Below, piece by piece: positions 2,720 to 19,692 of a DNA stretch of 32,000 nt. The stretch covers positions 1,530,001 through 1,562,000 of the forward strand of contig NZ_CP064923.1 in NCBI RefSeq assembly GCF_018336915.1, given 5' to 3'. The stretch is from Acaryochloris marina S15. GTDB taxonomy: Bacteria; Cyanobacteriota; Cyanobacteriia; Thermosynechococcales; Thermosynechococcaceae. Position 1 is the stretch's first letter. Every line of letters starts with the position of its first letter. The notes beneath the pieces were generated by a model. The model had not been told where the DNA came from and ran no database searches. It saw only the letters and a program-made list of their open reading frames with translations. A program made the translations under genes and the position numbers.

Positions 2720-4141
2720 ATGGCAGAAGAAAGAACGTATTTAGAGCTGTCAGAAGAAGCAGGGATAGCCCACAAGTTTTATGAAGTGGTGGTGGATGGC
2801 ACTGAGCTAAAAATCCGGTATGGACGGATTGGCAATGCGGGCCAAACCCAGGAAAAGATTTTGGCCACCCCCGAAAAAGCAAAAGCCGAAGCCGATAAAA
2901 AAATTAAAGCAAAGCTGCGCAAAGGCTATGAACCCGCCGTCCAAGGCGTACGAAAGAAACGGGCCATTACCCGACGGGAAATTACCAGTACTCGCTCTTC
3001 GGCCAATCGTGCTCCGGTGTTGTGGAGGTTTGCCTCCGGTGCATCCGCCTTTGGCATCTTTATTGACGAATCCCGGTGCTGGGTGGGCAATCAAAAGGGC
3101 CAAATCTTTACCCTGACTCCTGAGGGCCAAGTCACCCAAGAGTTTAAACTCCCCGATGGCGTTAAATGTATTGTGGCCGATGATGATTGGCTCTATGCCG
3201 GTTGTGACGACGGCAAAGTCTACGACCTGAGCGGTAAAATCCCCCGAGTGGCCTATTCCATTGCCGACGATGTCGATATCTTTTGGCTAGATATCAACGA
3301 CGGTATTTTAGGGGTCTCGGATCGCCAGGGCGTCGTCACCACCATTAACCATGAAGAAGAATCTCAGTGGAATCAACGCAGTAGTGGTGATCATGGCTGG
3401 ATGGTCCGGTGCGATGAGATTGGCGTCTACCATGGCCATGCCGGTGGGGTGACCATGTATGACTGGGAAGATGGTCAGGTGATTTGGGACCAGCATACAG
3501 AGGGAGCAGTCTTGTTTGGTTGGCAGGAAGAGTCCACGGTCTATGCCGGTACCAGCCGAGGCCATATCTACTGTTTCACCAAACAAGGCCAGCGGGAACA
3601 GATCCTCAAGTGCGATACCCAAGTCTATTCCTGTGCAGCGGCGGAAGAAGGCAAATATGTCTTTGCGGGAGACAGCTCCTCTTCTATTTATTGTTTTAAT
3701 GCAGAAGGCAAACGCCTGTGGAAGTTGGGAACGGGCTGTGGTTCTGCCTTCTCCATGCAGTTTATTCAAGATCGTCTGTATATTGTGACGACGGATGGAT
3801 CGTTGGCCTGTATTGACGCTAGCGAAGCTGCCATTCAAGCTGCCCAAGCCGGTACAGTGCCGGATGTGGTGAATGTGAAAGCGCCGAAACTAGATGCGAT
3901 CGCAGCTTCGTCTACCTTAGAAACCACTACTAGTGCGGGGCAAGGTGTGATTCTAGTCTGTATAAAAGACAGCAGCAAACTGCGGGTCCGGGTCGAGTCT
4001 GCGGGCTATCACACGGACTGGAATGTCCAATTCCCCAAGGAAATGCGGGAAGCAGGGGCTCGGTATGTCGTAGAAGACCTACGGGAAGCCGCCCGAGGCG
4101 GATTTTACCGCGCCTACGGTGAAATCAAGAAGCTGGTTTAA
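2720..4141 (+). CDS. WGR domain protein fused to a PQQ/WD-like beta-propeller and a C-terminal ~70-aa domain
   Basis: The N-terminus KFYEVVVDGTELKIRYGRIGNAGQTQEK...KIKAKLRKGYEP is a classic WGR signature. It is followed by repeated beta-strand blades (LYAGCDDGKVYDL, VYAGTSRGHIYCF, VFAGDSSSSIYCF, LYIVTTDGSLACI). The gene starts 33 nt after the kinase stop. Confidence 0.8.
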   Translation: MAEERTYLELSEEAGIAHKFYEVVVDGTELKIRYGRIGNAGQTQEKILATPEKAKAEADKKIKAKLRKGYEPAVQGVRKKRAITRREITSTRSSANRAPVLWRFASGASAFGIFIDESRCWVGNQKGQIFTLTPEGQVTQEFKLPDGVKCIVADDDWLYAGCDDGKVYDLSGKIPRVAYSIADDVDIFWLDINDGILGVSDRQGVVTTINHEEESQWNQRSSGDHGWMVRCDEIGVYHGHAGGVTMYDWEDGQVIWDQHTEGAVLFGWQEESTVYAGTSRGHIYCFTKQGQREQILKCDTQVYSCAAAEEGKYVFAGDSSSSIYCFNAEGKRLWKLGTGCGSAFSMQFIQDRLYIVTTDGSLACIDASEAAIQAAQAGTVPDVVNVKAPKLDAIAASSTLETTTSAGQGVILVCIKDSSKLRVRVESAGYHTDWNVQFPKEMREAGARYVVEDLREAARGGFYRAYGEIKKLV

Positions 4142-5555
4142 AGACTGGAACGCGGGGTGGGTATTTGCGCTTAATTCGCTTGACTTGAGCCTGAAACTGG
4201 GCTCCGCGTTCAGGATTTACCATATCGACAAAATTGGCATAGCCTTGGATGACAGCAAAGGATACCGCCTGCCCCCCCCAATGCTGATCGTCATAGCCTG
4301 ACTGCTCAATTTGGTGAAGCAACGCTCGAAATCGCTTCAGGGTTTTACGGTCAACGTTCAGCTTTTCGTTGACAACCACCCCCGTCACCTCTTGCTGCCG
4401 ACCACTGCGGAGAACCCGCGTTTTCTGGGGATGAATCGTAAATCCTTCGTGGGTAACAATGGCATGGGTCCGCCGCAACAGTTTGCCCACCTGCTGCTGA
4501 GGCTGACCTGTCGTCGAGAAGGTTAGATCATCTGCATAGCGCGTATACAGATATCCCAACTCTGCTGCCATAGCAGTCAATCGACGATCCAGACGGCGAC
4601 AGAGCAGATTGGTGAGGATGGGGCTGGTGGGTGCCCCTTGAGGTAAGTGGCGCTGAGACTGGGCCACATAATAATTCTGGCCATCCAAGTCCACTTCCAC
4701 CACATCGGGTTCCGTACAGAGCAGAGCGAAAATAGTAGCGGCAGCTTCGCTATAGCCAAAGGAACGAAATAAACCTTTGATCCGAGGATAGGAAATAGAC
4801 GGGAAAAAATCTTGGAGATCGAGGTTAATCACCACATCGGCCCCCAAATGGGGCATCGCGTTGGTGACAATAGAGCGACCTGGGCAAAATCCATGGGCAG
4901 CCTCATGGAGGGGGATGGATGCTAACAGTTTTTCTGCGATCCAATATTGGGCCTGCTTCAGACGAGGCATGGGGGCTGAAATCAACCGTTCTCCCCCAGT
5001 TTTCTTCGGAATTTTGAAGCGAACATAGTGGGAGATTTGGGCGGTACGCCGAGAGAAAGCTAAGAAGCGCAACTGTCCAACGCTAATCTGCATGGCCTTG
5101 GCAATCTCTTCCGCAGTCCCATAGGCAGGGAGTCCATATTGCTGGAGTCGTGTCAGATCGCACTCGGTCCGATTAAGTCCCCCAGAAACCCCTGCTCCCA
5201 GATAGACAATATCGCGAGCTTTTCGGTCTCGCCATGCTGTCGCCCGAGCCTGTCGTTCTTGCTCTCGTCGCTCTTTGGTTTCTTGGCGCTTCTTCTTAGA
5301 AGCAGCGAGTCGCTCCCTGTAGAGCTGCTTTTTAATGGCGGCTTCGTTATGTAGTTTGCGGTTCTCGGCCCGCAACGCCGCTAGTTCCCGCTGTATTTCT
5401 CCTTTACGCCGAATCTCATTCGTCGGATCTTGGGGCATCTCGCCTTCGGCGGGCCAAAATCCTAACCGCACCATTTCTTCTAAGATGACCTCATCACGGG
5501 AGCTTTGGCGGATGCGATCGTAGAGTTCTTGGCGGGTACGAGGTTGATTGGACAT
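4125..5555 (-). CDS. Retron-type reverse transcriptase with ~125-aa charged N-terminal extension
   Basis: Block-by-block resemblance to retron Ec86 RT:
- YGLPAYGTAEEIAKAMQISVGQLRFLAF
- KKTGGERLISAP
- SIVTNAMPHLGADVVINLDLQDFFPSI (NAxxH plus motif A)
- LPQGAPTSPILTNL
- YTRYADDLTFS (YADD)
- RQQEVTGVVVNEKLNV (VTG). Confidence 0.9.
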   Translation of the reverse strand: MSNQPRTRQELYDRIRQSSRDEVILEEMVRLGFWPAEGEMPQDPTNEIRRKGEIQRELAALRAENRKLHNEAAIKKQLYRERLAASKKKRQETKERREQERQARATAWRDRKARDIVYLGAGVSGGLNRTECDLTRLQQYGLPAYGTAEEIAKAMQISVGQLRFLAFSRRTAQISHYVRFKIPKKTGGERLISAPMPRLKQAQYWIAEKLLASIPLHEAAHGFCPGRSIVTNAMPHLGADVVINLDLQDFFPSISYPRIKGLFRSFGYSEAAATIFALLCTEPDVVEVDLDGQNYYVAQSQRHLPQGAPTSPILTNLLCRRLDRRLTAMAAELGYLYTRYADDLTFSTTGQPQQQVGKLLRRTHAIVTHEGFTIHPQKTRVLRSGRQQEVTGVVVNEKLNVDRKTLKRFRALLHQIEQSGYDDQHWGGQAVSFAVIQGYANFVDMVNPERGAQFQAQVKRIKRKYPPRVPVFKPAS

Positions 5556-5608
5556 GGAGTCAGGAAGGTGAACTCGATGATATGAATAGCTGTCTATTTT
5601 GAAAAAAA

Positions 5609-5842
5609 TAAACCCGGTCAGTTAAGTGCCTCTTCGTAAACCTCTTAGGACTGGATTGCTCAACTCGAGCGGGGCCGCCCTACTGTGGCTCGTTAGTTTC
5701 ATGGAAACTAAACCGTAACAGCCACAGTAGGGCGAAGCCCCGCACAGTAAAGAGCAAGCCAGTGATGCGCGTTTAGACTAATCACATGAATGGCGATGCA
5801 CCATTCGGGTTGCAAGGGGTAAATCGTAACCGACTGGGTTTT
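5609..5842 (-). ncRNA. Candidate retron msr-msd non-coding RNA
   Basis: Non-coding, on the same strand as the RT and 54 nt upstream of it.
- Long-range inverted repeat 5610-5624 / 5827-5841: 15 positions, 13 Watson-Crick plus 1 wobble. This is a1/a2-like.
- Small hairpin GAATGG-n7-CCATTC at 5788-5806, msr-like.
- Long hairpin at 5669-5743, msd-like.
- TACTAT -10-like hexamer on the minus strand at 5843-5848.
- U7 tract directly after the a2-like arm (plus-strand A-run 5602-5608). Confidence 0.55.
5669..5743 (-). repeat. 75-nt imperfect hairpin (candidate msd stem)
   Basis: Three paired segments:
- GCGGGGC (5669-5675) pairs with GCCCCGC (5737-5743).
- CGCCCTACTGTGGCT (5676-5690) pairs perfectly with AGCCACAGTAGGGCG (5720-5734).
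- The apical TTAGTTTC (5693-5700) pairs with GAAACTAA (5704-5711).
This gives about 30 bp of stem. The structure is certain; the function is inferred. Confidence 0.85.
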
Positions 5843-6035
5843 ATAGTACTTTTGTACTGTTAGTGTATCATAACACTCTGTTCGTAGAATGCCCAATATT
5901 TAGGTCAGGCTTGCAGTTGAAGGGCTTTCTATCAATAGCGAAAAAGTTAGGTGAATATATTAACCCCATCCATCTGACGGTGTCAGTTTTGACGGAGTAT
6001 CCAGGTAAAGCCGATAGGGATATTCCCTCGATGAG

Positions 6036-6545
6036 CTAATTTCCTCTGGGACAGTATATTGACACGATCTGGCATCCTTCGACATGCGGATCAGTATTGC
6101 TTGTTCGCAATAACTCTTGCTGTATCTCCATAACTGTCTGGCAACTCAGGATTAGCGCATTAGGGGACAAGGAACGATTGATGCTGTCTACATCATTTCC
6201 CCAATTGGTCAGCAAGGATACGTCGTAATAACCATCAATTAAATCAAATCCCAAAAAACGTGGATCGCTCTCGTCATGCTCACTAAATTTTAACCCCACT
6301 AAATCGCCCTGACCTATCTGGTAATGCTTTTGGACGGCGTAGTCATAATCCGTTATCAAATGAACTCTGAAATTCTCATGGTCAATATGATTCCAGTCTT
6401 CACCCTCTAGATCACTCAAAAGACTGGGTCTGAGGATGCCATCTATAGAGCCAAATTCTGTGAAGGCTAACCCTCGCCACTGACAGTAGCTTGTCCAGCG
6501 ATCGCCATCACTGGGAGAAAAACTTTCGATAATGGTAAACAGCAT
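6036..6545 (-). CDS. Hypothetical acidic 169-aa protein, no recognisable domain
   Basis: Clean ORF with an ATG start, co-oriented with and directly upstream of the ncRNA/RT. It contains a HIP1 site (6498-6505). I could place no motifs. Confidence 0.55.
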   Translation of the reverse strand: MLFTIIESFSPSDGDRWTSYCQWRGLAFTEFGSIDGILRPSLLSDLEGEDWNHIDHENFRVHLITDYDYAVQKHYQIGQGDLVGLKFSEHDESDPRFLGFDLIDGYYDVSLLTNWGNDVDSINRSLSPNALILSCQTVMEIQQELLRTSNTDPHVEGCQIVSIYCPRGN

Positions 6546-6691
6546 GTTCTTAGACTCATGGCTCGATCAACATTGTTTTGGGCTGGGGTATTGATTGTTA
6601 AACATCTGTTGTGAAGGCTGCGTATAATACCAATTTGTGTTTTGGGATGTAATTTAGATAGGATCTAATCCTATGTTCATTCCATAAGTAT

Positions 6692-7210
6692 ATGAGTCGA
6701 GTTAGTACAGTTAAACCGCATCTAACAGTGGATGAGGTGAAAGACAAAATTGCTACGGCTCCGACTGCCCGCTGTCAGCAAAAATGGATGATTATTTATA
6801 ACGCCCTGGTAGATCCTCGCCCAGCTATCGAAATAGCCACGCATACTGCTACTAGTCTTCGAACGGTCCATCAGGTGATTTCCGCTTACAATCGCCTAGG
6901 AGCAGCAGCAATTGCTCCTAGGGCTAAACGGAAGAAGAATCCCGGTGCTTATCTGAGTATCGAAGAAGAGATTGAATTTTTAGAATCGTTTATTGAACGT
7001 GCTCAACAAGGTCATTTAACAACGGTTCAAGAGATCCAAACGGCCTTTGAGACTAAAGTGGAGACGTCAGTGGCACCCAGTACTATCTATCGTTTGCTAG
7101 ACCGACACGGATGGCGCAAACTCATGCCTCGTCCGTCCCATCCCAATGGAAACAAAGCGGCACGAGAGGCTTTTAAAAAAACTTTCGGGGGCTGGTCCAA
7201 ACCGCTGTAG
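6692..7210 (+). CDS. IS630 transposase OrfA (HTH / winged-helix N-terminal part)
   Basis: The 172-aa ORF ends ...REAFKKTFGGWSKPL*. Its N-terminal region is helix-turn-helix-like (IEIATHTATSLRTVHQVISAYN..., STIYRLLDRHGW). Confidence 0.8.
   Translation: MSRVSTVKPHLTVDEVKDKIATAPTARCQQKWMIIYNALVDPRPAIEIATHTATSLRTVHQVISAYNRLGAAAIAPRAKRKKNPGAYLSIEEEIEFLESFIERAQQGHLTTVQEIQTAFETKVETSVAPSTIYRLLDRHGWRKLMPRPSHPNGNKAAREAFKKTFGGWSKPL
7175..7181 (+). promoter_or_regulatory. A7 slippery run, putative programmed -1 frameshift / transcriptional slippage site
   Basis: In TTT AAA AAA ACT (OrfA frame), a -1 slip on the A-run gives ...EAFKK|NFRGLVQT..., fusing OrfA to OrfB. Confidence 0.6.
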
Positions 7211-7755
7211 CAGATCGCTCAGCTGAAGACCAACGTCCCATTGTGATCATGGCAGCAGACGAAGGGCGCTTTGGTCGTCTAGGGCAAGTAAGAAGAGCTT
7301 GGTGTGCTCCTGGAATTCGACCCGAAAGTGGGCAGCAGCTTGTCCGTGAATATCTCTATGGCTATGTTGCTGTTGCTCCTGCGTTAGGAAAGATGAGTGC
7401 TTTAGTCTTACCCTTTTCCAATACTCAGATGATGAACTTATTCCTAGCACAAGTGGCGGATGAATTTTCAGACTATTTTGTGGTGATGCAGGTCGATGGA
7501 GCGTCTTACCACACCGGAAAGAAGCTCGTCATTCCAGACAATATACGCTTGATTGTTCAGCCTCCTCGAAGTCCACAACTCAATGCTGTAGAGCATATCT
7601 GGGAGGAGGTGAAAGAAAAGCACTTCTACAATCAGGTTTTTGATTCTTTAGATGAGGTATCCGATACCTTGTGCAAGGGACTCAAAGAACTCATGGATTT
7701 ACCCGATAGGCTGACTTCTATGACCAATTTTCCTCATATGAGAATTACGATTTAA
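7177..7755 (+). CDS. IS630 transposase OrfB (DDE catalytic part), reached by -1 frameshift from OrfA
   Basis: The frame is open from 7177 (KNFRGLVQTAVADRSAEDQRPIVIMAADEGRFG...). DDE triad context: AADEGRFG, VVMQVDGASYH, PPRSPQLNAVEHIWEEVK. The tracked start (GTG 7243) is internal to this frame. Confidence 0.8.
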   Translation, partial: KNFRGLVQTAVADRSAEDQRPIVIMAADEGRFGRLGQVRRAWCAPGIRPESGQQLVREYLYGYVAVAPALGKMSALVLPFSNTQMMNLFLAQVADEFSDYFVVMQVDGASYHTGKKLVIPDNIRLIVQPPRSPQLNAVEHIWEEVKEKHFYNQVFDSLDEVSDTLCKGLKELMDLPDRLTSMTNFPHMRITI

Positions 7756-7781
7756 AACGCAAATTGGTATAAGAAGACTCG

Positions 7782-8330
7782 CTAAGATAAACCAGTTTGA
7801 ACAATGCGGGCAATATTTCGAGCATCATCAATACCCCGATGATGGACACCTTCAAGCTCCAGGCCTAGCCTAGTTAAAGCTCCAGCCATACCAAACTTCT
7901 TTATAGAGTTGATCTGGATAGAAAAGGCTTTCTTTAAATTGAGATGCCCTCCTGGAAAGGGATAGCCAACACCATGCAACTGGCAATCCTGCCTGAATTG
8001 ATGTCTGTCATAATCTCCCCAAGAGCAAAACAGATAACTGCCAAAGGGGTAAAACCAAGATTGGAAGTCTTTGAGTGCTATAGGAAAAAGTGGGGCCTTT
8101 TCAATATCTTGTTGAGCAATGGATGTTAGAGATTTACAGAACTCAGTCAGCACAGGATGAAGAATGGGCTTCACGAAGGTCTGATATTCACGCTCTATTT
8201 GAAGCGTTTGTGAGTTGAGAAGCACAGCTCCAATCTCAATCATCTCCATCCTTCGGCGAGGAATGGAATTATCATCTGCACAGGTGGCTTCAAGATCGAC
8301 AATCAAGTAATATTTCTGACTAATTTTCAT
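7782..8330 (-). CDS. DEDDh 3'-5' exonuclease (ERI-1/KapD-like)
   Basis: Motifs:
- YYLIVDLEATC (DxE)
- MIEIGAV
- CSWGDYDRHQF
- HHRGIDDARNIARI (H-x4-D)
The likely start is the MKISQKYY ATG at 8330. The tracked ORF extends to 8354. Confidence 0.8.
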   Translation of the reverse strand: MKISQKYYLIVDLEATCADDNSIPRRRMEMIEIGAVLLNSQTLQIEREYQTFVKPILHPVLTEFCKSLTSIAQQDIEKAPLFPIALKDFQSWFYPFGSYLFCSWGDYDRHQFRQDCQLHGVGYPFPGGHLNLKKAFSIQINSIKKFGMAGALTRLGLELEGVHHRGIDDARNIARIVQTGLS

Positions 8331-8383
8331 TGATGTTGTGGAGGGGGTACCCAAGGCCTCTACAGGAATATGACACTCGGTGT

Positions 8384-8468
8384 CTAGCCAAACATAAGTC
8401 TTTTTGTGGCTTCTAGATATTTCCCTGTCAAAGCAGAGGCAGTTTCTTCGCGCATCATACCAATAGCC
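8384..8468 (-). repeat. Copy A of an 85-bp duplicated gene tail
   Basis: About 67/85 identical to 12670-12754 by hand count (51/58 in the core 8411-8468 versus 12697-12754). Same orientation, and both copies end on a stop codon. Confidence 0.8.
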
Positions 8469-8536
8469 CTAAGGCTTTCGTCATGCCTCCGTTGAATCAG
8501 CTCTGGCAAGAATTGGGCCTCTGTCCCTGCGTCCAT
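8384..8536 (-). CDS. Small 50-aa ORF, possibly the 3' part of a frameshifted ~88-aa gene (alternative ATG at 8649 in another frame)
   Basis: Below the track's size threshold. Translation: MDAGTEAQFLPELIQRRHDESLRAIGMMREETASALTGKYLEATKRLMFG*. Its C-terminal 28 codons are conserved at the protein level in a second copy at 12670-12754. The frame is open upstream only to 8584. Confidence 0.3.
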   Translation of the reverse strand: MDAGTEAQFLPELIQRRHDESLRAIGMMREETASALTGKYLEATKRLMFG

Positions 8537-8702: not shown

Positions 8703-10439
8703 CTACCAGCTCTCACCAGCTCCACCGCCACCACTACTACCTCCGCCAAAGTCACTCCCTCCACTGCTGCCACCATAGTCACCACCGCTATAGCTACTGC
8801 CACTGTCATAACTGCTGCTATAGCTTGATGAACTAGAACTGGAATATGAAGTTTTTGAGACTCGCGGGATCGTCACTCGTTCTTCCGTTTTCTGATGACA
8901 GCAAGCACATTCCCGAGTCAAGAGTTCTTCCCCATTAGAAGTGGTTGTCGCTTTCTCCAAGATTTCTGATGTGCTCGTCACCGTAAAAGCATTACAGTCA
9001 TCACAATGCGAGAATTTATAAGGATTCAGAACTTCTTGAAAAAGATGGAGATCAAATCCCATATCTGCTTGGGCAGAACTACAGGTTGGACATTGCCAAC
9101 CTTCAAACTGAGTACTGCCTATTTCTTTGGCAACTTTCTCTGCAGGTTTAAGGTATTCATCTAAGGTTTGATCCCCTAAATACTGCATCAGGCCATTACA
9201 AGATTGACATCGTACATCGATGTTGCAGGAAGGCGATCGCAACAACCGTAGCGTCCCTGCAGAGGCACCCCCCACCGCAGCAAACAAAGCAACAAAAACA
9301 TTTATGCTTCTGATACTGCTGGCCACAATCAGTACAACAGGAACGGCTACAAGGCCAAAAATCAACAGCTTGCTCAAGGTTGTTATGACTGCACTAGCGC
9401 CATTTTCATCACGCTTATTACAGCACCAAATTTCAAACCCAAACCAACCCCAGATCAGTAGTAATTTCAAGGCACTATAGCCTTCAATAATCGAAGATGC
9501 TAGCCAAAGACCGATTGCCAGCCCCAAGAAAGTGCACCAGCTTTGAAACACTTCTGTCGTCGGGTTAAATACGAGTCTGGTTTTAAGAGGCCGTCGTGGT
9601 CCATCATGACTCGTCACATCTCCTGCCAACCACCGTAATACCCAAACCCACAAACCCATCAAATTCAGTGATGTGTCTCTCTTCTCTTCATAAGTCGTGC
9701 GGCCTACTGGAGCGAACTTAAAGGAATGGCTCTTTCTAACGACTTTTACCAGCACAAACGATGTAGCCGTCACCACCCCTGTTGCAATAAAACCAACGAT
9801 TCCCTTAATAATGAGGTCGAAATTTTCAAAGATCCAAATGAGCCAGCCTAAATCAACAGACTCTCCTGACTCTTCACGGGTCGGCGGGGCAATGGTTCCA
9901 CCTTCTAAAACCTGGATGATTGCCTGAGTTCCTTTGACGATACCTGTATCAAAATTGCCTTGCTTAAAGTAAGGAGTAACCTGGGTGCGAAGAATATTGC
10001 CCACTTTCGCATCGGGGAGAATAGACTCTACGCCATATCCAGTCTCAATTTCTGTCCGGCGTTCGTTCTTCGAGACTAGAAATAAAATGCCATTGTCTTC
10101 CCCTTTTTTACCAATGCCCCAGGTATTAAATAGTTCAGTCGTAAACGCTTTGGGGGTTGCAGATGGTTGGGTATCGGGTACAGTTACCACTGCAATTTCG
10201 GCACCATTCCTTGCTTCCAACGCTGTAATCATCTGATTTAGCTGTGCTTCGCTGTCGGGACTGAGCACATCGGCCATATCCATCACCCAGTTATTGTCCT
10301 GGCGAGGGTTAGGAACTTCAGAGACTGGAATGGCCTGACTCGGCATCAGTGAGGATAGGGATAGAAGCAGGCTAAACCCCAGGGCAAAGAGGAAGGTCAG
10401 CGAGGTGCGCTCTCGCTGTCTAAGTCTGTTGGCAAACAT
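8703..10439 (-). CDS. TPM (YgcG-like) domain membrane protein with polytopic TM region, 4xCxxC zinc-ribbon-like module and Gly/Ser-rich tail
   Basis: Domains in order:
- Signal-like N-terminus.
- TPM block VMDMADVLSPDSEAQLNQMITALEARNGAEIAVVTVPD...GILFLVSKNERRTEIETGYG.
- About 5-6 hydrophobic segments.
- Cys pairs CQSC..CPTC..CDDC..CACC (aa 411-514).
- YgcG-type tail ...GGSSGGGGAGESW. Confidence 0.8.
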   Translation of the reverse strand: MFANRLRQRERTSLTFLFALGFSLLLSLSSLMPSQAIPVSEVPNPRQDNNWVMDMADVLSPDSEAQLNQMITALEARNGAEIAVVTVPDTQPSATPKAFTTELFNTWGIGKKGEDNGILFLVSKNERRTEIETGYGVESILPDAKVGNILRTQVTPYFKQGNFDTGIVKGTQAIIQVLEGGTIAPPTREESGESVDLGWLIWIFENFDLIIKGIVGFIATGVVTATSFVLVKVVRKSHSFKFAPVGRTTYEEKRDTSLNLMGLWVWVLRWLAGDVTSHDGPRRPLKTRLVFNPTTEVFQSWCTFLGLAIGLWLASSIIEGYSALKLLLIWGWFGFEIWCCNKRDENGASAVITTLSKLLIFGLVAVPVVLIVASSIRSINVFVALFAAVGGASAGTLRLLRSPSCNIDVRCQSCNGLMQYLGDQTLDEYLKPAEKVAKEIGSTQFEGWQCPTCSSAQADMGFDLHLFQEVLNPYKFSHCDDCNAFTVTSTSEILEKATTTSNGEELLTRECACCHQKTEERVTIPRVSKTSYSSSSSSSYSSSYDSGSSYSGGDYGGSSGGSDFGGGSSGGGGAGESW

Positions 10440-10744
10440 ATGTTGAATTAGCCTGTATTAAGGCTCTTAAGCAGCTATTTCTGGATATCTTTAGCATGCC
10501 CAGGATGGCCCCTATCCTGCTGAATCGTGGTTCAGGCAAGGGTCATCCGTGATACCGATCGCCCCATAAATACCAGAATTTAGCACTCTATCAGATTAGA
10601 ATCATCACCCCAAAATATGATGTAGAGCATTTGCAAATTAGACATCAGTTTTCTTGAAATAATCGGCCCCTCTCTCTGGAGGAATGATTAGATTGGAGTG
10701 CAACTCACCAGAAGACGTTGCAATAGATCTTGGAGGCCAGGAAG

Positions 10745-12376
10745 CTACGGTTTTATGAGTCGGTGTAAGTAGCAGGGTATGCTTACATAAACTTCAGAAG
10801 ACTGGTCACAATAAACGCATCGACCGACGATCAGCTTTTCGCCATCTACAAACCATTGTGCAGGTTGAACCACCCGAGCTTTACGATTTCGAACCGTATA
10901 GGCATCACACTCACTGCAATATCCAAACTTATCGGATTTCACAACTTCACGAAATAGATGAATACTGACATCGGTTTCTGTATGAGCAGGGCGACAAGTT
11001 GGACATTCCCAACCCACATGGCAGGTACTTTTAAGGGTTTTTGCTGCTTTTTCAGCTGGTTTTAAATAGCTCTCTATAGTTTTAGGTTCCAGGCATTGCA
11101 TCAGGCCATTACAGGATTGACAGTGTACTTCGGTGTAACGGGTGAGGGATCGCATCAGCAGTAACGTTCCCGCCCAAGCACCACCGAAAGCAGTGATGAG
11201 GTAAGGGGTTAATGCGGTCCTATAAATAAAAATATTCAGGATGCTAGCCAATATCAAGACTAAAATAATGGCGACTACATTACTGCGAAAAAGTCCACGA
11301 AATAGCGATATGGTTTCGCTGCCACCGTGATCGTCATGTTTAGCCCACCACCACAGTTCATACCCCAACCAAATGACCAGAAAACCCATGACCAATCCAT
11401 GGACATGGCGTACTGCCGTCTGATGGGAGAACACCACCCCTACAGATGAATAGGAGCCAAAGAAAATCCACCAGCTTTGAATGATTGGGCGAGTAAAATG
11501 AATTCCTTTATAGATAGGGAGAGTTTCTTCTCCCCCGACCGCTACCTTGCCTGTCCGCAACCAATGCAGTAGGGACGTCCGTATCCACCATAATCGACTG
11601 CCCTGGTTGGACAAGGTTGTACACCCCACTGGAGCAACCCGAAGCACTTGGCTTTTACGAACAATACTCATCAGCACAACCGCTGGAATCAGAACCAATG
11701 CCGCGAAGGTGAGACTCCACAAAACCAAGGTAGAGATAAAGAAACCGAGAGCCACGACAAACATCATCAGGATGACACCAATGATCGGAACATCGGCTGG
11801 CAGCGAGTAGATCTCTGATGGGTCCTCCTGTTCAAGCACCTCGATTACTGCTTGAGCACCATTAACGATACCTGCCTCAAAGGATCCTTGTTCCAAAGCA
11901 GGATAGATTTGGGTGGTCAGAATTTTATCGATTGTCCTCAGGGAAAGATCTAGGGTTTTTACATCCTTTCCTGTTTTAATGGCTGCATGGGGTTCCTCTT
12001 CAGAGACCAACAACAATATACAATCACTCTTCGCTTGCTCATCTATTTCCCAATGATTCAGCAGTTCATCAGCGAACTCGCTGGATGAAGCTAACGGCTT
12101 TATATCCGGCACCGTTACCACTATCAATTCGGTTCCACGCTTAGCGACTAACCCATCGATCATCTGCTTCAGTTGTTGCTCACTATCCCATCGGAGGATA
12201 TTCGCCTGATCCATGACCCAATTATTATCTTGACGCGGATCAGACACGTCAGATACTGGAATGGCTCGGCTCGGGGAGAGGGAGCCGAGGAATAGCCACA
12301 AGCTTATCCCTACAGCTAAAACAACTGTCCATAAGGGACGATAGTGATGTCCTTGTCTTTTTAAATTCACAATCAC
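10745..12376 (-). CDS. Paralogous TPM domain membrane protein with 4xCxxC module (no Gly/Ser tail)
   Basis: Same architecture as 8703-10439: VMDQANILRWDSEQQLKQMIDGLVAKRGTELIVVTVPD, TM segments, CQSC..CPTC..CSEC..CVYC. GTG start. Confidence 0.8.
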   Translation of the reverse strand: MIVNLKRQGHHYRPLWTVVLAVGISLWLFLGSLSPSRAIPVSDVSDPRQDNNWVMDQANILRWDSEQQLKQMIDGLVAKRGTELIVVTVPDIKPLASSSEFADELLNHWEIDEQAKSDCILLLVSEEEPHAAIKTGKDVKTLDLSLRTIDKILTTQIYPALEQGSFEAGIVNGAQAVIEVLEQEDPSEIYSLPADVPIIGVILMMFVVALGFFISTLVLWSLTFAALVLIPAVVLMSIVRKSQVLRVAPVGCTTLSNQGSRLWWIRTSLLHWLRTGKVAVGGEETLPIYKGIHFTRPIIQSWWIFFGSYSSVGVVFSHQTAVRHVHGLVMGFLVIWLGYELWWWAKHDDHGGSETISLFRGLFRSNVVAIILVLILASILNIFIYRTALTPYLITAFGGAWAGTLLLMRSLTRYTEVHCQSCNGLMQCLEPKTIESYLKPAEKAAKTLKSTCHVGWECPTCRPAHTETDVSIHLFREVVKSDKFGYCSECDAYTVRNRKARVVQPAQWFVDGEKLIVGRCVYCDQSSEVYVSIPCYLHRLIKP

Positions 12377-12669: not shown

Positions 12670-12754
12670 TTAAGTAAAAATCAGACTTTCTGCCGTTTCT
12701 AGATATTTTTCAGTCAAAGCAGACGCAGTTGCTTGGCGCATCATACCAATAGCG
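12670..12754 (-). repeat. Copy B of the 85-bp duplicated gene tail (truncated small-gene remnant)
   Basis: Encodes ...AIGMMRQATASALTEKYLETAESLIFT*, compared with copy A ...AIGMMREETASALTGKYLEATKRLMFG*. Homology stops exactly at the SWIM gene stop codon (12755-12757). Confidence 0.8.
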
Positions 12755-14398
12755 CTACGAAACTGCCCGACTATGCTGCATCCGTAGAGCCAGAATATGC
12801 TCGCAGGGGCCTTTGAAGAGCTTATTTTGCTGATGCCAATTGCAAGTACATTCGCCGTGAACCATTCGCTCATCCCGATCAATGGCCACAATCGGCTGCA
12901 ATGTCTTATCCCCATGCTGAACCGTGCCTTGTAACAGCAGGGTACCCTTCCCATCCACCGAAGACTGACTAACCCGCACCGCATTTTGATCCAAGAATCG
13001 CGTGGCTTGGGCTTCCCGTTCATTGCTAAAGCGCAGCTTATCCATGGGGAGCGGATCGCGGGAGAGTTCTCGCACTCGGTAGACCTGCTTGTTGAGATCA
13101 TAAATGGCTCGTCCTGCTTGGGTATAGGCACTCAGTGCCCCTAACACCACGGACTGATCCAGCCCTAAACGCCTAGCCAGATCAGCCGGCGACTCCACCC
13201 AATTCTGTTTCAAGGCTTCAAATACCTGGCGCTTTGTCCAATCATCCACCTGGGCACGGGGGGCCATTAGGTCAAAATTTCCTGCTCGTGACCAATCATT
13301 GGCGGTCCATCCCGATAGACCTAACGTAAAGGACATATCGTTGAGGTCTGCCACGTAGAACGAGGGCAGTCCTGTACCCAACAAATGCACCGTAAACTTA
13401 CGGGCGACTGGAATCAGACGTTCTAAAATCATTAATCGTCGTCGTCCCCAAACTCGTACCATTTCTGGTTTATGCCCCTGATAAATAGAGCGGGCACAAA
13501 CAATTTCTTGGTCCCAGGGTTCTAGAACCATCCGAATCGGTTCTCCAGGAGTGAGGTGATAGCGGAGGCTGCGAGGGCCATGCTTTTCCCGGCGTCGGCG
13601 GAGGGCAAAGCAGAGGTTGTAAATATCCATCGGATGCAGGTCGAATTGGATGGCTGGCAGGGCCATGGCCGAACTGACTTGTAAAAAGCCTCGCACCCAA
13701 GTGTCGGGCAAATCAATTTTGACTTCTTTGTAGGCAGCCGTTCCCGTCGTTTCCACCTCAAAGCCAGAGGGATCGACTTCTAAAAGGGTTTGCCGGTAGC
13801 TGCGAATTTTTTGAAATTCGTCGTACAGGGTTGCTGAGTAGTCGACATTGGTGGTGCCACAGGCAAAGTCATTGACCTGATCAAAAACGTTATAGCTGGC
13901 ACCCAAGCGGCCATAACTGGACTCATCCTGGCTAAAACACTCAAAGAAAACCTCATCCGGATGAACCGTAATCACTGGGTCGAGGACAAACCAGGCATCA
14001 TAATCTTTGCGATAGAGATAGTTAAAATACTGTTGTCTAGCCTGATAAAACGGAGCTAACCGATTTGAACTACGGCGATGCAGGTCTGTGAGTTCAGCTT
14101 GAAAGGCTTCGAGTTTTTCGGTGACCTCTTGACGTTGAGCAGCCACCCGTTGCCAATCAATATCATCCCGCTGAGCCGCCCAGGCTTTATAAGCCGTTTT
14201 ATCTTGAGGCTGAAATCGCAAGTCAGAAACCACTACATCATGGAGGGCGCTGATGGCTTCGCGAAAAGCAATATTTTGCTGCAACTGTCCTCGAAAATAG
14301 GTCGGTTCGCGGGTCAAGTCTGGGGAGAAGGACATTTGGGCTTGGTCGCCTTGTCCCGATACCTGGCTATTCCGTTTGTAGTTGTAGTTAAACTCCAT
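12755..14398 (-). CDS. SWIM zinc-finger family protein (YehQ-like)
   Basis: C-terminal CxCx(n)CxH motif: CTCNWHQQNKLFKGPCEHILAL. The likely start is the MEFNYNYK ATG at 14398, 29 nt after the upstream stop. The tracked start at 14554 would overlap the upstream gene by 127 nt. Confidence 0.8.
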   Translation of the reverse strand: MEFNYNYKRNSQVSGQGDQAQMSFSPDLTREPTYFRGQLQQNIAFREAISALHDVVVSDLRFQPQDKTAYKAWAAQRDDIDWQRVAAQRQEVTEKLEAFQAELTDLHRRSSNRLAPFYQARQQYFNYLYRKDYDAWFVLDPVITVHPDEVFFECFSQDESSYGRLGASYNVFDQVNDFACGTTNVDYSATLYDEFQKIRSYRQTLLEVDPSGFEVETTGTAAYKEVKIDLPDTWVRGFLQVSSAMALPAIQFDLHPMDIYNLCFALRRRREKHGPRSLRYHLTPGEPIRMVLEPWDQEIVCARSIYQGHKPEMVRVWGRRRLMILERLIPVARKFTVHLLGTGLPSFYVADLNDMSFTLGLSGWTANDWSRAGNFDLMAPRAQVDDWTKRQVFEALKQNWVESPADLARRLGLDQSVVLGALSAYTQAGRAIYDLNKQVYRVRELSRDPLPMDKLRFSNEREAQATRFLDQNAVRVSQSSVDGKGTLLLQGTVQHGDKTLQPIVAIDRDERMVHGECTCNWHQQNKLFKGPCEHILALRMQHSRAVS

Positions 14399-14427
14399 GC
14401 AAACTCTCTCGACTTCAGGATTGACGG

Positions 14428-17400
14428 TTAAATACTTGAGGACAAGGCAGCAGGCTCTCGCACGGCGACGGGCTTTACCTGTAGAGGCACTGAGATCTGG
14501 GGATAGGCGCTGTGAATTTTTAATAAAATCTCCAATGCCCGAGCGCGATCGCAAATGGCAATCGTCACGGACTGGCGAGTCAGAATCTCGGCAATAATCT
14601 CTGCTGCGGTTAAGCTTTTGGTTGCTTCCGCTTCCAGGAAGGCATAGACCCGCTGCTTGGTCACCCGACCTCGATTTACTTGGGCTAACACCCGAGTAAA
14701 ATACGGCGTTAGCTCTTGCAGTCGCTGGGGATTATCCACCACATAGGTCTGCAGGTATTGGGTGGCAAACAGCTGCATATCGGTAGCAGGATGCTCACTA
14801 AATTTGAGCAAATAACCTTCCCCATCTGCATCACGAAAACATCGACTGACCAGATCTCGCCCCAGTTGGCGAACCTGGGGAAGATTACTATCACAAATAC
14901 TAATAACCACCGCAGGGGTCAGCTCATCGGGCTTCAGATCATCGCGAAACAGCTTAAATCCAAACTGGCGGGTATCTTCCCATGTGGACTCCAATACCCG
15001 GACGATATCCAGCAGATCCGATTCGCTCTGTCGTAACCGAGGCAAGATCGCTTCCAACATCTGCCATCCGGCTGTGCGTACAGACAGCATGTCATGGTGA
15101 GTGAATTGGGCAATATCAGCAGTGGGGAGGGTAGCAGACCAGGGATCGCAATGATGCTGCAACACATAACCCGCAATTTCCTGGGCTGCAGGAGAGTCTG
15201 ATTCTAGGAGTTTGTGAACCTGCTCAGGAGTAATATTGTCCATCCATCCCGGTAGAGCCTGGCGCAGCAGTTCCGTTAAAAAGCGATGAATGCCTTCCGT
15301 TTCTTCTGGCCCTTGCAATACCTCCAGCAGAGGTTGGGCTAGATGCTGACTAAAGCTAAGTTGGGCAGCAGCTATGCGCTGAATCGCTGGACGGATCGCC
15401 AAACGCATTTCGGCAAGGGGATGAGCGATCAGGGTGAGCAATAGCCCTGTTTGCTCCATCAGAACGGTATCGGGTAATTGACTGAGCAGTCGTACCCCAA
15501 CTACCCGCACGGAATCGAAGGGGGAATCAATCAGGGCATCAATCAGCCCCGGTGGGAGTTCTGTCACCGGAGTGGAATGGTTCAGCAGAATCCGCGCCCC
15601 AAAGGTCTGCATCTCAGCAGCGGGGTATCGCAAGATATCCAACACCACTTCCAACCCGAGGGTCCGCAGTTGAGCGCCAAAACTGAGAAAGAGGGTTTCG
15701 CTAATATCCGTGATCCAGTCCTCTGACGGGATGTTTTCGGGCTCCTGGTTTAAGAGAATGGCAATCACCTGACCCAAAATCGCCCGTGCCCTCGTATCTT
15801 CTAGCAAAGCTTTACTCAACAGTCGTCGAGTAAAGGCCCGCATATCGGCGGGTTTGCAGGTTACCAACTGGGCGATTAGCTGACTGTCGTTGAGAAACAC
15901 ATCTCGCTGAGCGGTAATCCAGGCTTGGGCTTGCTGGCGAGCGGGGGCATAGTTACAGGTTGCGATCGCAACCATCAATTCCCGATTCGGTTGGGAGGCA
16001 TCATAACGGGCCTGGGCTATTTCAAATCCCAACTGAGCCGTAATTTCATAGGGGCGCTCCAGCAGAAGAATCACGCTCTCCAAGGGTAGGCTCTCCAGGA
16101 AGGACCGACTAGCCCGAATGGCTTTAACCGCAAACTCATGCACCGGTTGGCAGCCGCTTTCCGACAATAAACGCAGCAAAGCGACCGGCTGTTGGTCCCA
16201 CAAATGGGGAAAGGCCTCTTCCCGTTCAGGGGGAGCTGGATCACCCGGCTTATAGGAGGACTGACAGCGCCAGGCTTTATTCGCAGGCTTAAGAACATAG
16301 CGAGGGCTCTGTTCATAGAGGACATGGTTAAAGGCGAGATACCCGGCAAAGAGATCCCAGTTAACGCGGCCCGTTTCCACCCGGCTATAGCTATTGCGCC
16401 AATCCCAGTGATAGAAAACCGACTCCCGAACCGACCCGGCATCCTCATCGGCATATTGCAATAACAGATCAACCGCAAACGTGACATAGCTTGAGTCTCC
16501 AGCCTGACCCAGCTTACGTAAAGTCCGCCAAACCCTCCGCCGCAGGTAGTCTCGGGTCTTGTCGCTAAAGGCTAACCGAGTGTCTGGACGTCGCTGTTCT
16601 GTCGTGATCGGATTATCAGTGGTCCGCTCATAGCGTCCGGTGCGGGAATTATAGGTATATCCGGCATAGAGGTATTCCCCATCCGGCAGTCGCACACCAT
16701 AGCCTTGGTTACGATATAGCGCTTTTTCTTGCTCAAACCGATAGGCCAGCAGGCCAAAGACTTCGGTATCCTGCCGATATTCAGCCATTTTGAAAATATG
16801 CCGCAGTCGCTGGAAGTAGCTGGGGCGCAGGGGTGCTGTTTGAATTACCTCAAGCACAGCGGGTCGAGTCACCTCACTATCGATCTGATACAGCAGATCG
16901 AGCACGGCCAAGGTCTGGGGAGAGGCATTCGGATCTAAGGTACTTTTGAGGGTTTGCGTCAAAGCGCTGGCTGGACCTTGTCGAGTCAAGGTTCGCAAAT
17001 CCGGTGGTAACTGCACCATTAGCTCTTGCCGCAGGGCATCTCGTTGGGCCGCAGTTCCTAGTTTGAACAGCGCTTCTAGGGTAATACGCTGCACAAACTC
17101 TGCCCCAGGCTGACGGTAACGCTGTTCTAAGGCGGTATAGGTGCTTTGATCGCCACATTGACCTAGGGCCCAGGCGATACAGTAATTTCTCAGATCTTCT
17201 TGTCCCCAAAGTTGCAGCAACAAAGGAGCCGCAGCCTGAATTTTTAATTCCCCTGCTCGCCAGATCACCCGATTCAGGGGCCACTCCTTAGCCACAGGGC
17301 GAGTTGCTGCAGGAGATTGAAGGGCTGCTGCTAAGCGATTTAAGATAGCTTGCGATCGCACATTCGGATCAATCGGTGTCTCGACTGGGGCAGGTGTTGG

Positions 17401-17673
17401 GGAAGCCGTCGTTTCAGGTGGATTAGCTTCTCCCGTACTAACCCGATAGCCTTTCCGCAGCTTGGCATTGATCAGCCGGTCAAAAATACGCTGGGCCATT
17501 TCTAAAGGCACTGCAGAAACCGTTTCTGAACCTTCCTTTAAAGCAGTGCCTTGGCGACCATAGCGAAAATTGACCACATAAGCGCCCTCACTCACCTGGC
17601 ACAGATCCACCTCATACACTTTTTCAGTGCGACCCGCTTGATAAACCAGGGTGGTTCGCTGAATCAGTTGCAT
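14428..17673 (-). CDS. 1081-aa WGR domain protein with HEAT/ARM-like helical repeats (MolR-like)
   Basis: The N-terminal KVYEVDLCQVSEGAYVVNFRYGRQGTALKEG...LINAKLRKGYRV is WGR. HEAT_PBS-like repeats follow (VIWRAGELKIQAAAPLLLQL...CIAWALGQCGD). The remainder is alpha-helical. Confidence 0.75.
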   Translation of the reverse strand: MQLIQRTTLVYQAGRTEKVYEVDLCQVSEGAYVVNFRYGRQGTALKEGSETVSAVPLEMAQRIFDRLINAKLRKGYRVSTGEANPPETTASPTPAPVETPIDPNVRSQAILNRLAAALQSPAATRPVAKEWPLNRVIWRAGELKIQAAAPLLLQLWGQEDLRNYCIAWALGQCGDQSTYTALEQRYRQPGAEFVQRITLEALFKLGTAAQRDALRQELMVQLPPDLRTLTRQGPASALTQTLKSTLDPNASPQTLAVLDLLYQIDSEVTRPAVLEVIQTAPLRPSYFQRLRHIFKMAEYRQDTEVFGLLAYRFEQEKALYRNQGYGVRLPDGEYLYAGYTYNSRTGRYERTTDNPITTEQRRPDTRLAFSDKTRDYLRRRVWRTLRKLGQAGDSSYVTFAVDLLLQYADEDAGSVRESVFYHWDWRNSYSRVETGRVNWDLFAGYLAFNHVLYEQSPRYVLKPANKAWRCQSSYKPGDPAPPEREEAFPHLWDQQPVALLRLLSESGCQPVHEFAVKAIRASRSFLESLPLESVILLLERPYEITAQLGFEIAQARYDASQPNRELMVAIATCNYAPARQQAQAWITAQRDVFLNDSQLIAQLVTCKPADMRAFTRRLLSKALLEDTRARAILGQVIAILLNQEPENIPSEDWITDISETLFLSFGAQLRTLGLEVVLDILRYPAAEMQTFGARILLNHSTPVTELPPGLIDALIDSPFDSVRVVGVRLLSQLPDTVLMEQTGLLLTLIAHPLAEMRLAIRPAIQRIAAAQLSFSQHLAQPLLEVLQGPEETEGIHRFLTELLRQALPGWMDNITPEQVHKLLESDSPAAQEIAGYVLQHHCDPWSATLPTADIAQFTHHDMLSVRTAGWQMLEAILPRLRQSESDLLDIVRVLESTWEDTRQFGFKLFRDDLKPDELTPAVVISICDSNLPQVRQLGRDLVSRCFRDADGEGYLLKFSEHPATDMQLFATQYLQTYVVDNPQRLQELTPYFTRVLAQVNRGRVTKQRVYAFLEAEATKSLTAAEIIAEILTRQSVTIAICDRARALEILLKIHSAYPQISVPLQVKPVAVREPAALSSSI

Positions 17674-19198: not shown

Positions 19199-19496
19199 AA
19201 TGCCAACCTTCTGGCTCATATTCCCGTTGAATACGAACCTGCCAAGTTCCCTGAGGAATGGCGAGGGCATTGTGTTCTTCGTGGATTAGGGTGGCTTCGG
19301 GAGAAAGAACCCGTAAGTAAAGGGTGCCGTCCTTTTCGTACAGCTCGGCTTGTCCTTCACTAATACGATGGCTATGCCCCGTCACTTCACCTTCCGCCAA
19401 CGTTAAATGAGAAAGTTGACGACCTAAGCTGGGCGTCGTTTTGGACAAAGGTCTGAGGATTACATCACCTTGACGAATGGGTTGCATCTTTGTCAT
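19185..19496 (-). CDS. Small beta-rich protein of a phage-associated family (QGDV...GE-TGH-H...HEEH...QREY motif pattern)
   Basis: Sequence: MTKMQPIRQGDVILRPL...LAEGEVTGHSHRI...LIHEEHNALAIPQGTWQVRIQREYEP. A GGAGGAG lies 11 nt upstream of the ATG at 19496. The tracked start at 19526 adds 10 aa. Confidence 0.6.
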   Translation of the reverse strand: MTKMQPIRQGDVILRPLSKTTPSLGRQLSHLTLAEGEVTGHSHRISEGQAELYEKDGTLYLRVLSPEATLIHEEHNALAIPQGTWQVRIQREYEPEGWHYVAD

Positions 19497-19615
19497 CTCT
19501 CTAATGTCTCCTCCATTGTGGCACATGCATTTAAGACATCTTCCCAGCCCCCCTTCTCTATAATGGAGGTCGAGAAATTCCTAGGCTTTGACATTATTCT
19601 CTCAAATCGAAAATT

Positions 19616-19639
19616 GGCATCCATCATAGAACGGATGCC
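19616..19639 (-). terminator. Candidate intrinsic terminator after the NACHT gene
   Basis: On the minus strand: GGCAUCC - 10-nt loop - GGAUGCC, followed by AAUUUUCGAUUU. It starts about 54 nt downstream of the NACHT stop (19693). Confidence 0.45.
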
Positions 19640-19692
19640 TGCTGGGGAAATAGTGGTTTGGGGGCAGTTGGCGATGTGCCTTTTTCCCAGAG

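Follow-up and report, generated by a model that had tools for sequence, protein, structure and literature searches.

Introduction

Retrons of type XIII, which correspond to clade 10 of Mestre et al. 2020 and include Mx162, Mx65, Sa163 and Ne144 (PMC7736814), possess their own structure class of non-coding RNA (ncRNA) and two partner proteins, one of the DEDE/winged-helix/SWIM kind and one that combines WGR with HEAT/ARM repeats (PMC7736814). The founding members Mx162, Sa163, Mx65 and Ne144 make branched multicopy single-stranded DNA (msDNA) (PMC7736814, PMC6868368). Simon et al. 2019 described an N-terminal extension in the reverse transcriptases (RTs) of myxococcal retrons and placed putative cyanobacterial RTs in one group with these (PMC6868368). 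The retron family that has been known longest is type XIII (Mx162), and its biology and effector mechanism are among the least understood. Here we analyse a stretch of 32,000 nucleotides (nt) of Acaryochloris marina S15 (contig NZ_CP064923.1, positions 1,530,001 to 1,562,000; called the window below, with all coordinates counted from its first letter), in which an interval of the minus strand had been proposed, from the letters alone, to be a retron msr-msd gene with the canonical order a1, msr hairpin, msd stem, a2 and RT.

This original prediction is supported, because the RT family assignment, the type XIII partner genes, the homology of the RNA in 49 loci and strong covariation all point the same way. 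We hold with high confidence that positions 5841-5610 (minus strand) are the msr-msd gene of a type XIII (Mx162-like) retron, with the RT start 46 nt downstream. The type XIII family has already been described, its ncRNA class since 2020, and since standard defence-system hidden Markov models recognise all proteins of the locus, the locus is an added cyanobacterial member of this family and not a new kind of element. Modestly new are a terminator-like U-run together with an ncRNA-specific promoter, a scattered gene layout and a recurrent neighbour with WGR and beta-propeller domains. The locus yields predictions at base resolution for the promoter, the a1/a2 arms, the inner helix, the msr hairpin, the msd stem and two candidate priming Gs.

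The reverse transcriptase and the type XIII partner genes

Three genes of the window identify the system:

4125-5555, minus strand: retron RT of 476 aa, of which about 145 aa form an N-terminal extension (PADLOC RT_XIII, Pfam RVT_1)
12755-14554, minus strand: SWIM Zn-finger protein, type XIII partner of the Mestre cluster 114 type (PADLOC SWIM_XIII, E 2e-243)
14428-17673, minus strand: WGR and HEAT/ARM repeat protein, type XIII partner of the Mestre cluster 216 type (PADLOC WGR_XIII, E 0, full length; HEAT-ARM_XIII; Pfam WGR and HEAT_2)

The RT matches PADLOC RT_XIII over its full length (residues 2-466) at E 3.8e-198, the next-best retron model reaching 1.7e-103, and its Pfam RVT_1 domain occupies residues 182-394. 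Retron models make up the bulk of its PADLOC matches. Its translation carries the motifs NAXXH (as NAMPH) and VTG, by which retron RTs have been defined (PMC7736814), in addition to YADD, and the N-terminal extension agrees with that of myxococcal retron RTs (PMC6868368). The structured RNA at 5841-5610 is contiguous with the RT gene, which starts at 5555, and lies on the same strand.

Structured ncRNAs immediately preceding the RT gene are also known from other defence RTs, and the element could in principle be the template or guide of a non-retron defence RT (DRT2- or DRT9-like) or a fragment of a group II intron, acting without branched-G priming. The RT does give weak sub-threshold NCBIfam matches to Drt2, Drt3a and the group II maturase, all of them far below the cut-offs (41.6 bits where 390 are required, and 66.9 where 300 are), whereas the retron models score 218-657 bits. 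Given the NAXXH and VTG motifs, and an a1/a2-bracketed architecture that together with the SWIM and WGR partners is that of type XIII, we consider a non-retron RT very improbable.

Structure and conservation of the RNA

Read base by base on the minus strand, the a1 arm AAACCCAGTCGGTTA (AAACCCAGUCGGUUA) is found at 5841-5827 and the a2 arm TAACTGACCGGGTTT (UAACUGACCGGGUUU) at 5624-5610, and the two pair as originally proposed, through 13 Watson-Crick pairs and 1 G-U, with 1 A.C mismatch (5835/5616). The small hairpin GAATGG-n7-CCATTC was also placed correctly at 5806-5788 and extends to 8 bp with a loop of 3 nt, and A5609 is followed by T7 at 5608-5602. The 75-nt hairpin that had been taken for the msd is present at 5743-5669, but it is only the variable upper part of a msd stem-loop of 114 nt (5763-5650). 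The parts of the element are as follows:

5827-5841, minus strand: a1, 5' arm of the closing inverted repeat, AAACCCAGUCGGUUA (sequence reading, RNAfold, covariation)
5820-5826, minus strand: 5' linker CGAUUUA, whose sole G is G5825 (a1 end plus 2 nt); its length and sequence vary across homologs
5814-5819, minus strand: CCCCUU, the 5' strand of an inner helix stacked beneath a1/a2, its partner being AAGAGG at 5634-5629 (RNAalifold helix 1)
5810-5815, minus strand: invariant motif UUGCAA, which holds G5813 (in the trimmed window sequence T24, T25, G26 and C27 show no variation, 43/43)
5788-5806, minus strand: msr stem-loop of 8 bp (5806-5799 with 5795-5788), loop CAU (consensus structure)
5764-5787, minus strand: conserved segment between the msr hairpin and the msd stem, ending in GCAUCAC (invariant and near-invariant columns)
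5650-5763, minus strand: msd stem-loop of 114 nt with conserved lower and variable upper helices and an apical hairpin at 5708-5696 (consensus helices 3-8)
5629-5649, minus strand: conserved 3' segment CCUAAGAGGUUUACGAAGAGG, which includes an invariant CGA (5636-5634) and, at 5634-5629, the 3' strand of the inner helix (alignment columns)
5610-5624, minus strand: a2, UAACUGACCGGGUUU, the 3' arm of the closing inverted repeat; the variable 3' linker CACU (5628-5625) lies just before it (reading, RNAfold, covariation)
5602-5609, minus strand: A and then U7, adjoining a2; with the a1/a2 helix they make up a putative leaky intrinsic terminator (attenuator) (comparison)

According to RNAfold, positions 5850-5595 fold at -104.7 kcal/mol (z = -8.1; 0/200 shuffles fold as well) into a minimum free energy structure that is closed by a1/a2.

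For comparison, 80 loci (designated by L numbers) were obtained by RT alignment, and the proteins of the window were searched against them by tblastn. Homologs of 5850-5595 were found in 38 of these loci with a single-sequence nhmmer search and in 49 loci with a profile of 43 copies. All of them lie on the RT strand and all but one partial match lie upstream of the RT, typically between SWIM and RT; the hosts span at least seven phyla and comprise cyanobacteria, Acidobacteriota, Myxococcota, Bacteroidota, Alpha-, Beta- and Gammaproteobacteria and Verrucomicrobiota. A leave-one-out profile made without the window detects the latter at E 1.2e-51 (5819-5621, minus strand), with no other match in the 32 kb even at E <= 10. 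In Rfam 15 there is no family for this RNA; across the window no family matches at gathering thresholds, and around the element a search at E <= 1 gives only a chance miR-like match on the hairpin. The assignment to the type XIII ncRNA structure class is indirect in that it goes through homology to the elements between SWIM_XIII and RT_XIII homologs in the 49 loci; a search with a Myxococcaceae RT, meant to provide Mx162 as an anchor, returned Archangiaceae and Hyalangium homologs and not M. xanthus. A published retron census and a paper on environmental retrons make no mention of type XIII.

The conserved core of the RNA comprises query positions of about 33-222, without a1 and a2. Its RNAalifold consensus over 43 sequences has 45 pairs, 34 of them with double-sided changes; 90.9% of the cells are paired, where shuffles give 73.4% and slid partners 36-46%, and the covariation score stands at 0.486 compared with about 0.1 in controls. 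The window forms 44/45 consensus pairs. The inner helix (columns 28-31 with 221-224) is 96.5% paired, and 8 sequences have U-A in place of C-G at one of its pairs; within the window the pairs are 5816-5814 with 5632-5634 and 5819-5818 with 5629-5630, and 5817/5631 is a C.A mismatch. In the msr hairpin, 99.7% of cells are paired over the 43 sequences and double-sided changes occur in 5/8 pairs. The msd helices 3-8 have such changes in 27/33 pairs, all 33 of which are formed by the window, and the lower msd helices (ACUGG/CCAGU and others) are both conserved and covarying. A second msr hairpin, AUGUG/CGCAU (alignment columns 59-63 with 78-82, within 5787-5764), was considered and rejected: its 5 bp show 0 double-sided changes and are indistinguishable from shuffles.

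The a1 and a2 arms, which are unrelated in sequence between copies, are replaced in every homolog by an a1/a2 helix of its own, of 19-30 bp in other cyanobacteria and 34-40 bp in myxobacterial loci against 14 bp in the window. In 32/45 copies a1 pairs best with its cognate a2, which ranks among the top six in 44/45; the mean energy of cognate pairs is -37.9 kcal/mol compared with -16.6 kcal/mol for non-cognate combinations; for the a1 of the window the figures are -19.2 kcal/mol with its own a2 and -15.2 kcal/mol with the best of the a2 flanks of 44 other copies. In an alignment anchored on the 12 innermost a1/a2 pairs, with the anchors chosen per sequence by energy, 12/12 pairs change on both sides, 81.5% of cells are paired (43% in shuffles) and the covariation score reaches 0.942, against 0.22 in shuffles and 0.17-0.27 with slid partners. 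Compensatory change, the absence of which would have spoken against the original prediction, is found in a1/a2, in the msr hairpin and in the msd stem alike.

These comparisons bear on two simpler explanations of the element. The first is that it is a host repeat of the REP (repetitive extragenic palindromic) or MITE (miniature inverted-repeat transposable element) kind, or a plain transcription terminator upstream of the RT, with no template function. A GC-rich palindrome followed by a T-run is indeed terminator-like, small palindromic repeats are abundant in cyanobacterial genomes and an insertion sequence (IS) element lies nearby. However, the element is present in one copy in the 32-kb window, the RNA (core about 70% identical) recurs in Acidobacteriota, Myxococcota, Bacteroidota, Proteobacteria and Verrucomicrobiota always beside type XIII genes and on the RT strand, and the covariation spans eight helices, far more than a terminator requires, which makes a repeat or a terminator highly improbable. 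The second explanation is that the region encodes the protein of a 62-aa open reading frame (ORF) at 5708-5896 (minus strand) instead of an RNA. This ORF stands in the mechanical ORF list, but it starts with TTG, has no family match and spans the promoter, a1 and half of the msd stem, and the homologs have indels that are not multiples of three as well as paired compensatory changes; the likelihood that it is what the region encodes is close to nil.

The relative L081 is a 1.96-kb Logan contig whose RT is 95% identical to that of the window. Over the 232-nt element from a1 to a2 the two differ at 6 positions, none of them outside a1/a2, the apical loop and the two linkers; one of the changes (C5616 to U) turns the A.C mismatch into an A-U pair. 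The approximately 100 nt upstream of the element are virtually identical and the T-run is retained as T6, whereas the spacer from the T-run to the RT start codon has a 17-nt indel and many substitutions.

The comparative set (at least 43 ncRNAs with strong covariation and as yet no Rfam family) should suffice for a covariance model with which this RNA class could be annotated. Retrons that combine a long msd with a defined variable upper stem could serve genome engineering as donors for longer RT-DNA. In seven loci (L003, L016, L022, L029, L036, L055 and L083) tandem arrays of 2-3 type XIII ncRNA copies stand upstream of a single RT, each copy having its own a1/a2 arms and its own upper msd stem.

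Candidates for the branching guanosine

The priming G of retrons has been mapped to the inner end of the a1 stem or shortly beyond it, in the context CAGC in Mx162 and Sa163 and GAGC in Mx65, the common retron priming context being UAGC (PMC6868368). The original prediction had suggested G5825. This choice agrees with the positional rule, G5825 lying 2 nt past the end of a1 and being the only G of the linker, but the linker is non-conserved and has no G in about 8/43 homologs. Another G, G5813, is invariant in 43/43 sequences; it comes right after the covarying inner helix and lies opposite the invariant CGA (5636-5634) of the template side. Its context, UUGC, resembles the common UAGC, while that of G5825 is ACGA. 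We therefore lean, by a modest degree, towards G5813 as the branching G, and regard G5825 as a possible but weaker choice.

Putative promoter and leader of the ncRNA

Two features precede a1:

5867-5895, minus strand: putative sigma-70-type promoter, TGGGCA (5895-5890), 17 nt, TATGAT (5872-5867), with TG at 5875-5874 (consensus scan)
5845-5858, minus strand: 5' leader hairpin AGUAC-AAAA-GUACU, whose 3' arm holds TACTAT; the palindrome is also present in L082 and L085

The TGGGCA box is invariant among the nearest relatives with upstream sequence, where it is followed exactly 17 nt on by a -10-like hexamer, TATGAT in L081, TACACT in L082 and a perfect TATAAT in L085. On the basis of the sequence, TGGGCA-17-TATGAT probably acts as the ncRNA promoter, with a start near 5860. 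The TACTAT at 5848-5843, to which the original prediction had assigned the role of the -10 box, is present but does not serve: it is not called by the scan, a start directed by it would fall inside a1 and it sits in the leader hairpin, about 25 nt downstream of the conserved promoter. The leader palindrome AGUAC-N4-GUACU folds as a hairpin in L082 as well, its GTAC bases being invariant and hence giving no covariation evidence, and in L085 the 3' half of the leader pairs instead with UGAGUAC after a2, which lengthens the closing helix.

In the other cyanobacterial clade a1 starts a few nt after the SWIM stop codon, and the ncRNA there must be transcribed from further upstream. A second, RT-proximal promoter in the window, TTTTCA-17-TATCAT (5605-5577), was rejected; it is a match to the consensus only and is not conserved in L081, where the stretch between the T-run and the RT start is scrambled.

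The U-tract after a2

The suggestion of the original prediction that the U7 run is a terminator or attenuator gains comparative support, while remaining an interpretation. A T-run of at least 5 directly after a2 is present in 15/16 cyanobacterial copies (the window, L081, L001, L002, L007, L008, L042, L047, both copies of L055, both copies of L083, L085, L087 and L088), and also in the GC-rich L018 and L035 and in the Bacteroidota L024, L030 and L036. In the window a GC-rich stem is followed by a U-tract, as in a terminator: the outer a1/a2 pairs are CCC/GGG and AAA/UUU, and A and U7 come next. The a1/a2 helix with A-U7 is probably a leaky intrinsic terminator, as judged from these features.

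Several observations weigh against this reading. The T-run is missing from L082, from most myxobacterial copies including those of Archangiaceae, and from the alphaproteobacterial and most acidobacterial ones, and a terminator scan with loops of 3-8 nt gives no call, the a1/a2 helix enclosing about 200 nt and not being a canonical hairpin. In L042 and L018 the RT start codon lies about 20 nt past the T-run, and therefore termination must be incomplete there.

It is possible, if somewhat doubtful, that in cyanobacterial type XIII retrons the a1/a2 helix doubles as a terminator stem, that the msr-msd is a self-contained transcription unit (with its own promoter in the subclade of the window) and that the WGR-propeller protein described below is a fourth component. 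If this were true, the autonomy of the msr-msd would explain how an RT can drift kilobases from its ncRNA, or become fully unlinked from it and act in trans; it would also explain arrays of 2-3 different ncRNAs serving one RT and the tolerance of a scattered layout, as in the window. The recurrent U-run after a2, the frequent unlinking of RT and ncRNA in cyanobacteria and the recurring WGR-propeller neighbour are testable hypotheses on ncRNA/RT dosage and modularity.

Gene layout of the locus

The other features of the neighbourhood are the following:

2720-4141, plus strand: WGR and beta-propeller protein, convergent with the RT, with a 17-nt overlap with the 3' end of the latter (Pfam WGR and propeller families)
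6036-6545, minus strand: 169-aa ORF directly upstream of the ncRNA promoter
6627-7770: IS630-type element between the exonuclease gene and the 169-aa ORF, with 37-nt imperfect inverted repeats (6627-6663, 7734-7770)
7782-8354, minus strand: KapD-like DEDDh 3'-5' exonuclease, in the gap between SWIM and ncRNA
8703-12376, minus strand: two paralogous TPM-domain proteins with 38% mutual identity, in the same gap

The canonical layout, established by tblastn in at least 30 loci, is (WGR-propeller), WGR/HEAT, SWIM, ncRNA and RT on one strand, with the ncRNA 30-80 nt after SWIM. The homology of the window to this layout ends at 12774 and restarts at 5817, and SWIM and ncRNA are some 6.9 kb apart, the gap containing the two TPM-domain genes, the DEDDh exonuclease, the IS630-type element and the 169-aa ORF. 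The cassette is, in other words, not contiguous. Mestre et al. place the partner gene merely 'linked upstream or downstream' (PMC7736814), and contiguity is for this reason not strictly a defining feature of type XIII. Among cyanobacterial loci split layouts are frequent: genes stand between ncRNA and RT in L001, L002, L007, L047, L083 and L088, and no ncRNA, SWIM or WGR/HEAT lies within about 8 kb of the type XIII RT homolog in L005, L009, L026, L046, L051, L057 and L071. The RT is often unlinked from the remaining system in cyanobacteria.

The distance between the parts raises the question of whether the retron module is decayed or orphaned, that is, made of genuine type XIII parts that have been torn from the WGR/HEAT-SWIM operon and no longer work as a unit. 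The 6.9 kb in place of the 30-80 nt of at least 30 canonical loci, the IS630-type element (6627-7770) in between and the break of homology at 12774, resumed only at 5817, would all fit such a history. On the other hand, all four proteins match over their full length without frameshifts, the ncRNA forms 44/45 consensus pairs, and the ncRNA, promoter and RT are evidently constrained in the comparison with L081. Separation also seems to be tolerated, because split layouts are common in cyanobacteria and several cyanobacterial RTs have no ncRNA within 8 kb. A decayed module is, in our judgement, unlikely, and we retain the reading of the locus as a type XIII retron.

Four points nevertheless count against that reading. 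There is no contiguous operon and, with 6.9 kb between SWIM and ncRNA, coordinated expression is uncertain. The closing helix has just 15 positions, compared with about 34-40 bp in the myxobacterial relatives. There are two candidates for the branching G, neither of which matches the published contexts exactly (PMC6868368). Finally, the production of msDNA at this locus is presumed by analogy with the described members of the family.

The WGR-propeller protein is 61-66% identical to the product of the first gene of seven myxobacterial type XIII operons (L012, L014, L015, L018, L020, L023 and L035), and in the cyanobacterial L087 and L088 its gene is convergent and lies 4-5 kb past the RT. It is absent from the type XIII partner clusters of Mestre 2020, and its PADLOC match is weak (1e-4). 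This protein may be an additional, fourth component of the system.

Within the gap, the IS630 transposase is split into an ORF with a helix-turn-helix (6692-7210) and a DDE_3 ORF (7243-7755), which suggests a frameshift or decay. The 169-aa ORF at 6036-6545 has no Pfam, NCBIfam or PADLOC match and no tblastn match in the 80 related loci. A direct repeat of 82 nt (83% identical; 8390-8471 and 12676-12757) flanks the two TPM-domain genes, one copy beginning at the SWIM stop codon, and both copies keep an open frame of 24 codons on the minus strand, MMRQATASALTEKYLETAESLIFT and MMREETASALTGKYLEATKRLMFG. One possibility is that the repeat is a micro-ORF or gene end which was duplicated and now marks the insertion or duplication by which SWIM was parted from the ncRNA; at the breakpoints of the rearrangement no second ncRNA and no remnant of the SWIM 3' end were found.

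Immediately upstream of WGR_XIII, at 17876-21993 (minus strand), are genes for a DUF6745 protein and a NACHT/STAND NTPase (weak PADLOC PDC-S60 match); with these two on the same strand as WGR_XIII, the region resembles a defence island. Elsewhere in the comparison set, L083 has a HicA/HicB pair between WGR/HEAT and SWIM (5954-6402), and in L087 (14672-16513) and L088 (13063-14901) the RT is closely followed by a gene for a VWA-domain protein of about 612 aa.

Proposed mechanism

By the scheme that we propose, transcription would start near 5860 from the TGGGCA-17-TATGAT promoter, and most transcripts would end at A-U7 as free ncRNA, with read-through into the RT gene in a minority. The RT would bind the msr part and prime from the 2'-OH of a G at the inner end of the closing stem. 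The conserved 3' segment at 5649-5629 (CCUAAGAGGUUUACGAAGAGG) is the probable start of the template for the complementary DNA, and the RT would copy the msd from about 5635-5625 through the stem-loop and halt near the conserved GCAUCAC (about 5765-5775); by analogy with known retrons the segment 5787-5764 is likely the region of msr/msd overlap and of the RT stop. The product would be a branched RNA-DNA molecule with single-stranded DNA of about 130-150 nt. A multi-part system would be completed by the SWIM and WGR/HEAT proteins, whose genes lie 7 kb upstream, and perhaps by the WGR-propeller protein; by analogy with other retron types it is presumably an anti-phage sensor/effector.

Comparison with known systems

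With Retron-Eco1 (Ec86) and the other E. coli retrons of types I and II the locus shares the general mechanism that we assume, with an a1/a2 stem, a priming G at its inner end, recognition of msr hairpins by the RT and copying of the msd stem into msDNA, and the same RT motifs (PMC7736814, PMC6868368), but the RT clade and the ncRNA structure class differ. The E. coli retrons have RTs without the N-terminal extension, different effectors and a much shorter msDNA, and they have neither the inner CCUU/AAGG helix nor the UUGCAA motif. Retron-Nex1 (Ne160) of Nannocystis, with its repeated msr-msd copies (PMC6868368), is a precedent for the tandem ncRNA arrays of other type XIII loci, the window having a single copy.

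Among the closest known systems are Retron-Mxa1 (Mx162) and Retron-Sau1 (Sa163), the founding type XIII retrons from myxobacteria, with which the locus has in common an RT of clade 10/type XIII with a long N-terminal extension and a msr-msd followed by the RT (PMC7736814, PMC6868368), as well as a closing a1/a2 repeat, a long msd stem-loop and SWIM and WGR/HEAT partners. The msDNA of about 130-150 nt predicted for the window compares with 162 nt in Mx162 and 163 nt in Sa163. The locus differs from these two retrons in its cyanobacterial host, in the conserved putative promoter that belongs to the ncRNA itself, in the U-run that comes after a2 and in partner genes that are not adjacent but lie 7 kb off; its a1/a2 repeat measures 15 bp instead of about 34 bp, the closest myxobacterial loci in our comparison being those of Archangiaceae and Hyalangium and not Mx162 itself. 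The priming context CAGC of Mx162 is absent in the window.

The locus also resembles the predicted type XIII retrons of other cyanobacteria, such as L082 (filamentous cyanobacterium LEGE 11480), L083 (Aerosakkonema), L087 (Coleofasciculus) and L042 (Aetokthonos), whose RTs are 63-70% identical to that of the window. They have a homologous ncRNA core with the same helices and, in nearly all copies, the T-run after a2, and L082 and L085 share the promoter and the leader hairpin of the window as well. In most of these relatives the ncRNA abuts the SWIM stop codon, and where the locus is split the break lies between ncRNA and RT, whereas in the window it lies between SWIM and ncRNA and the ncRNA stays with its RT.

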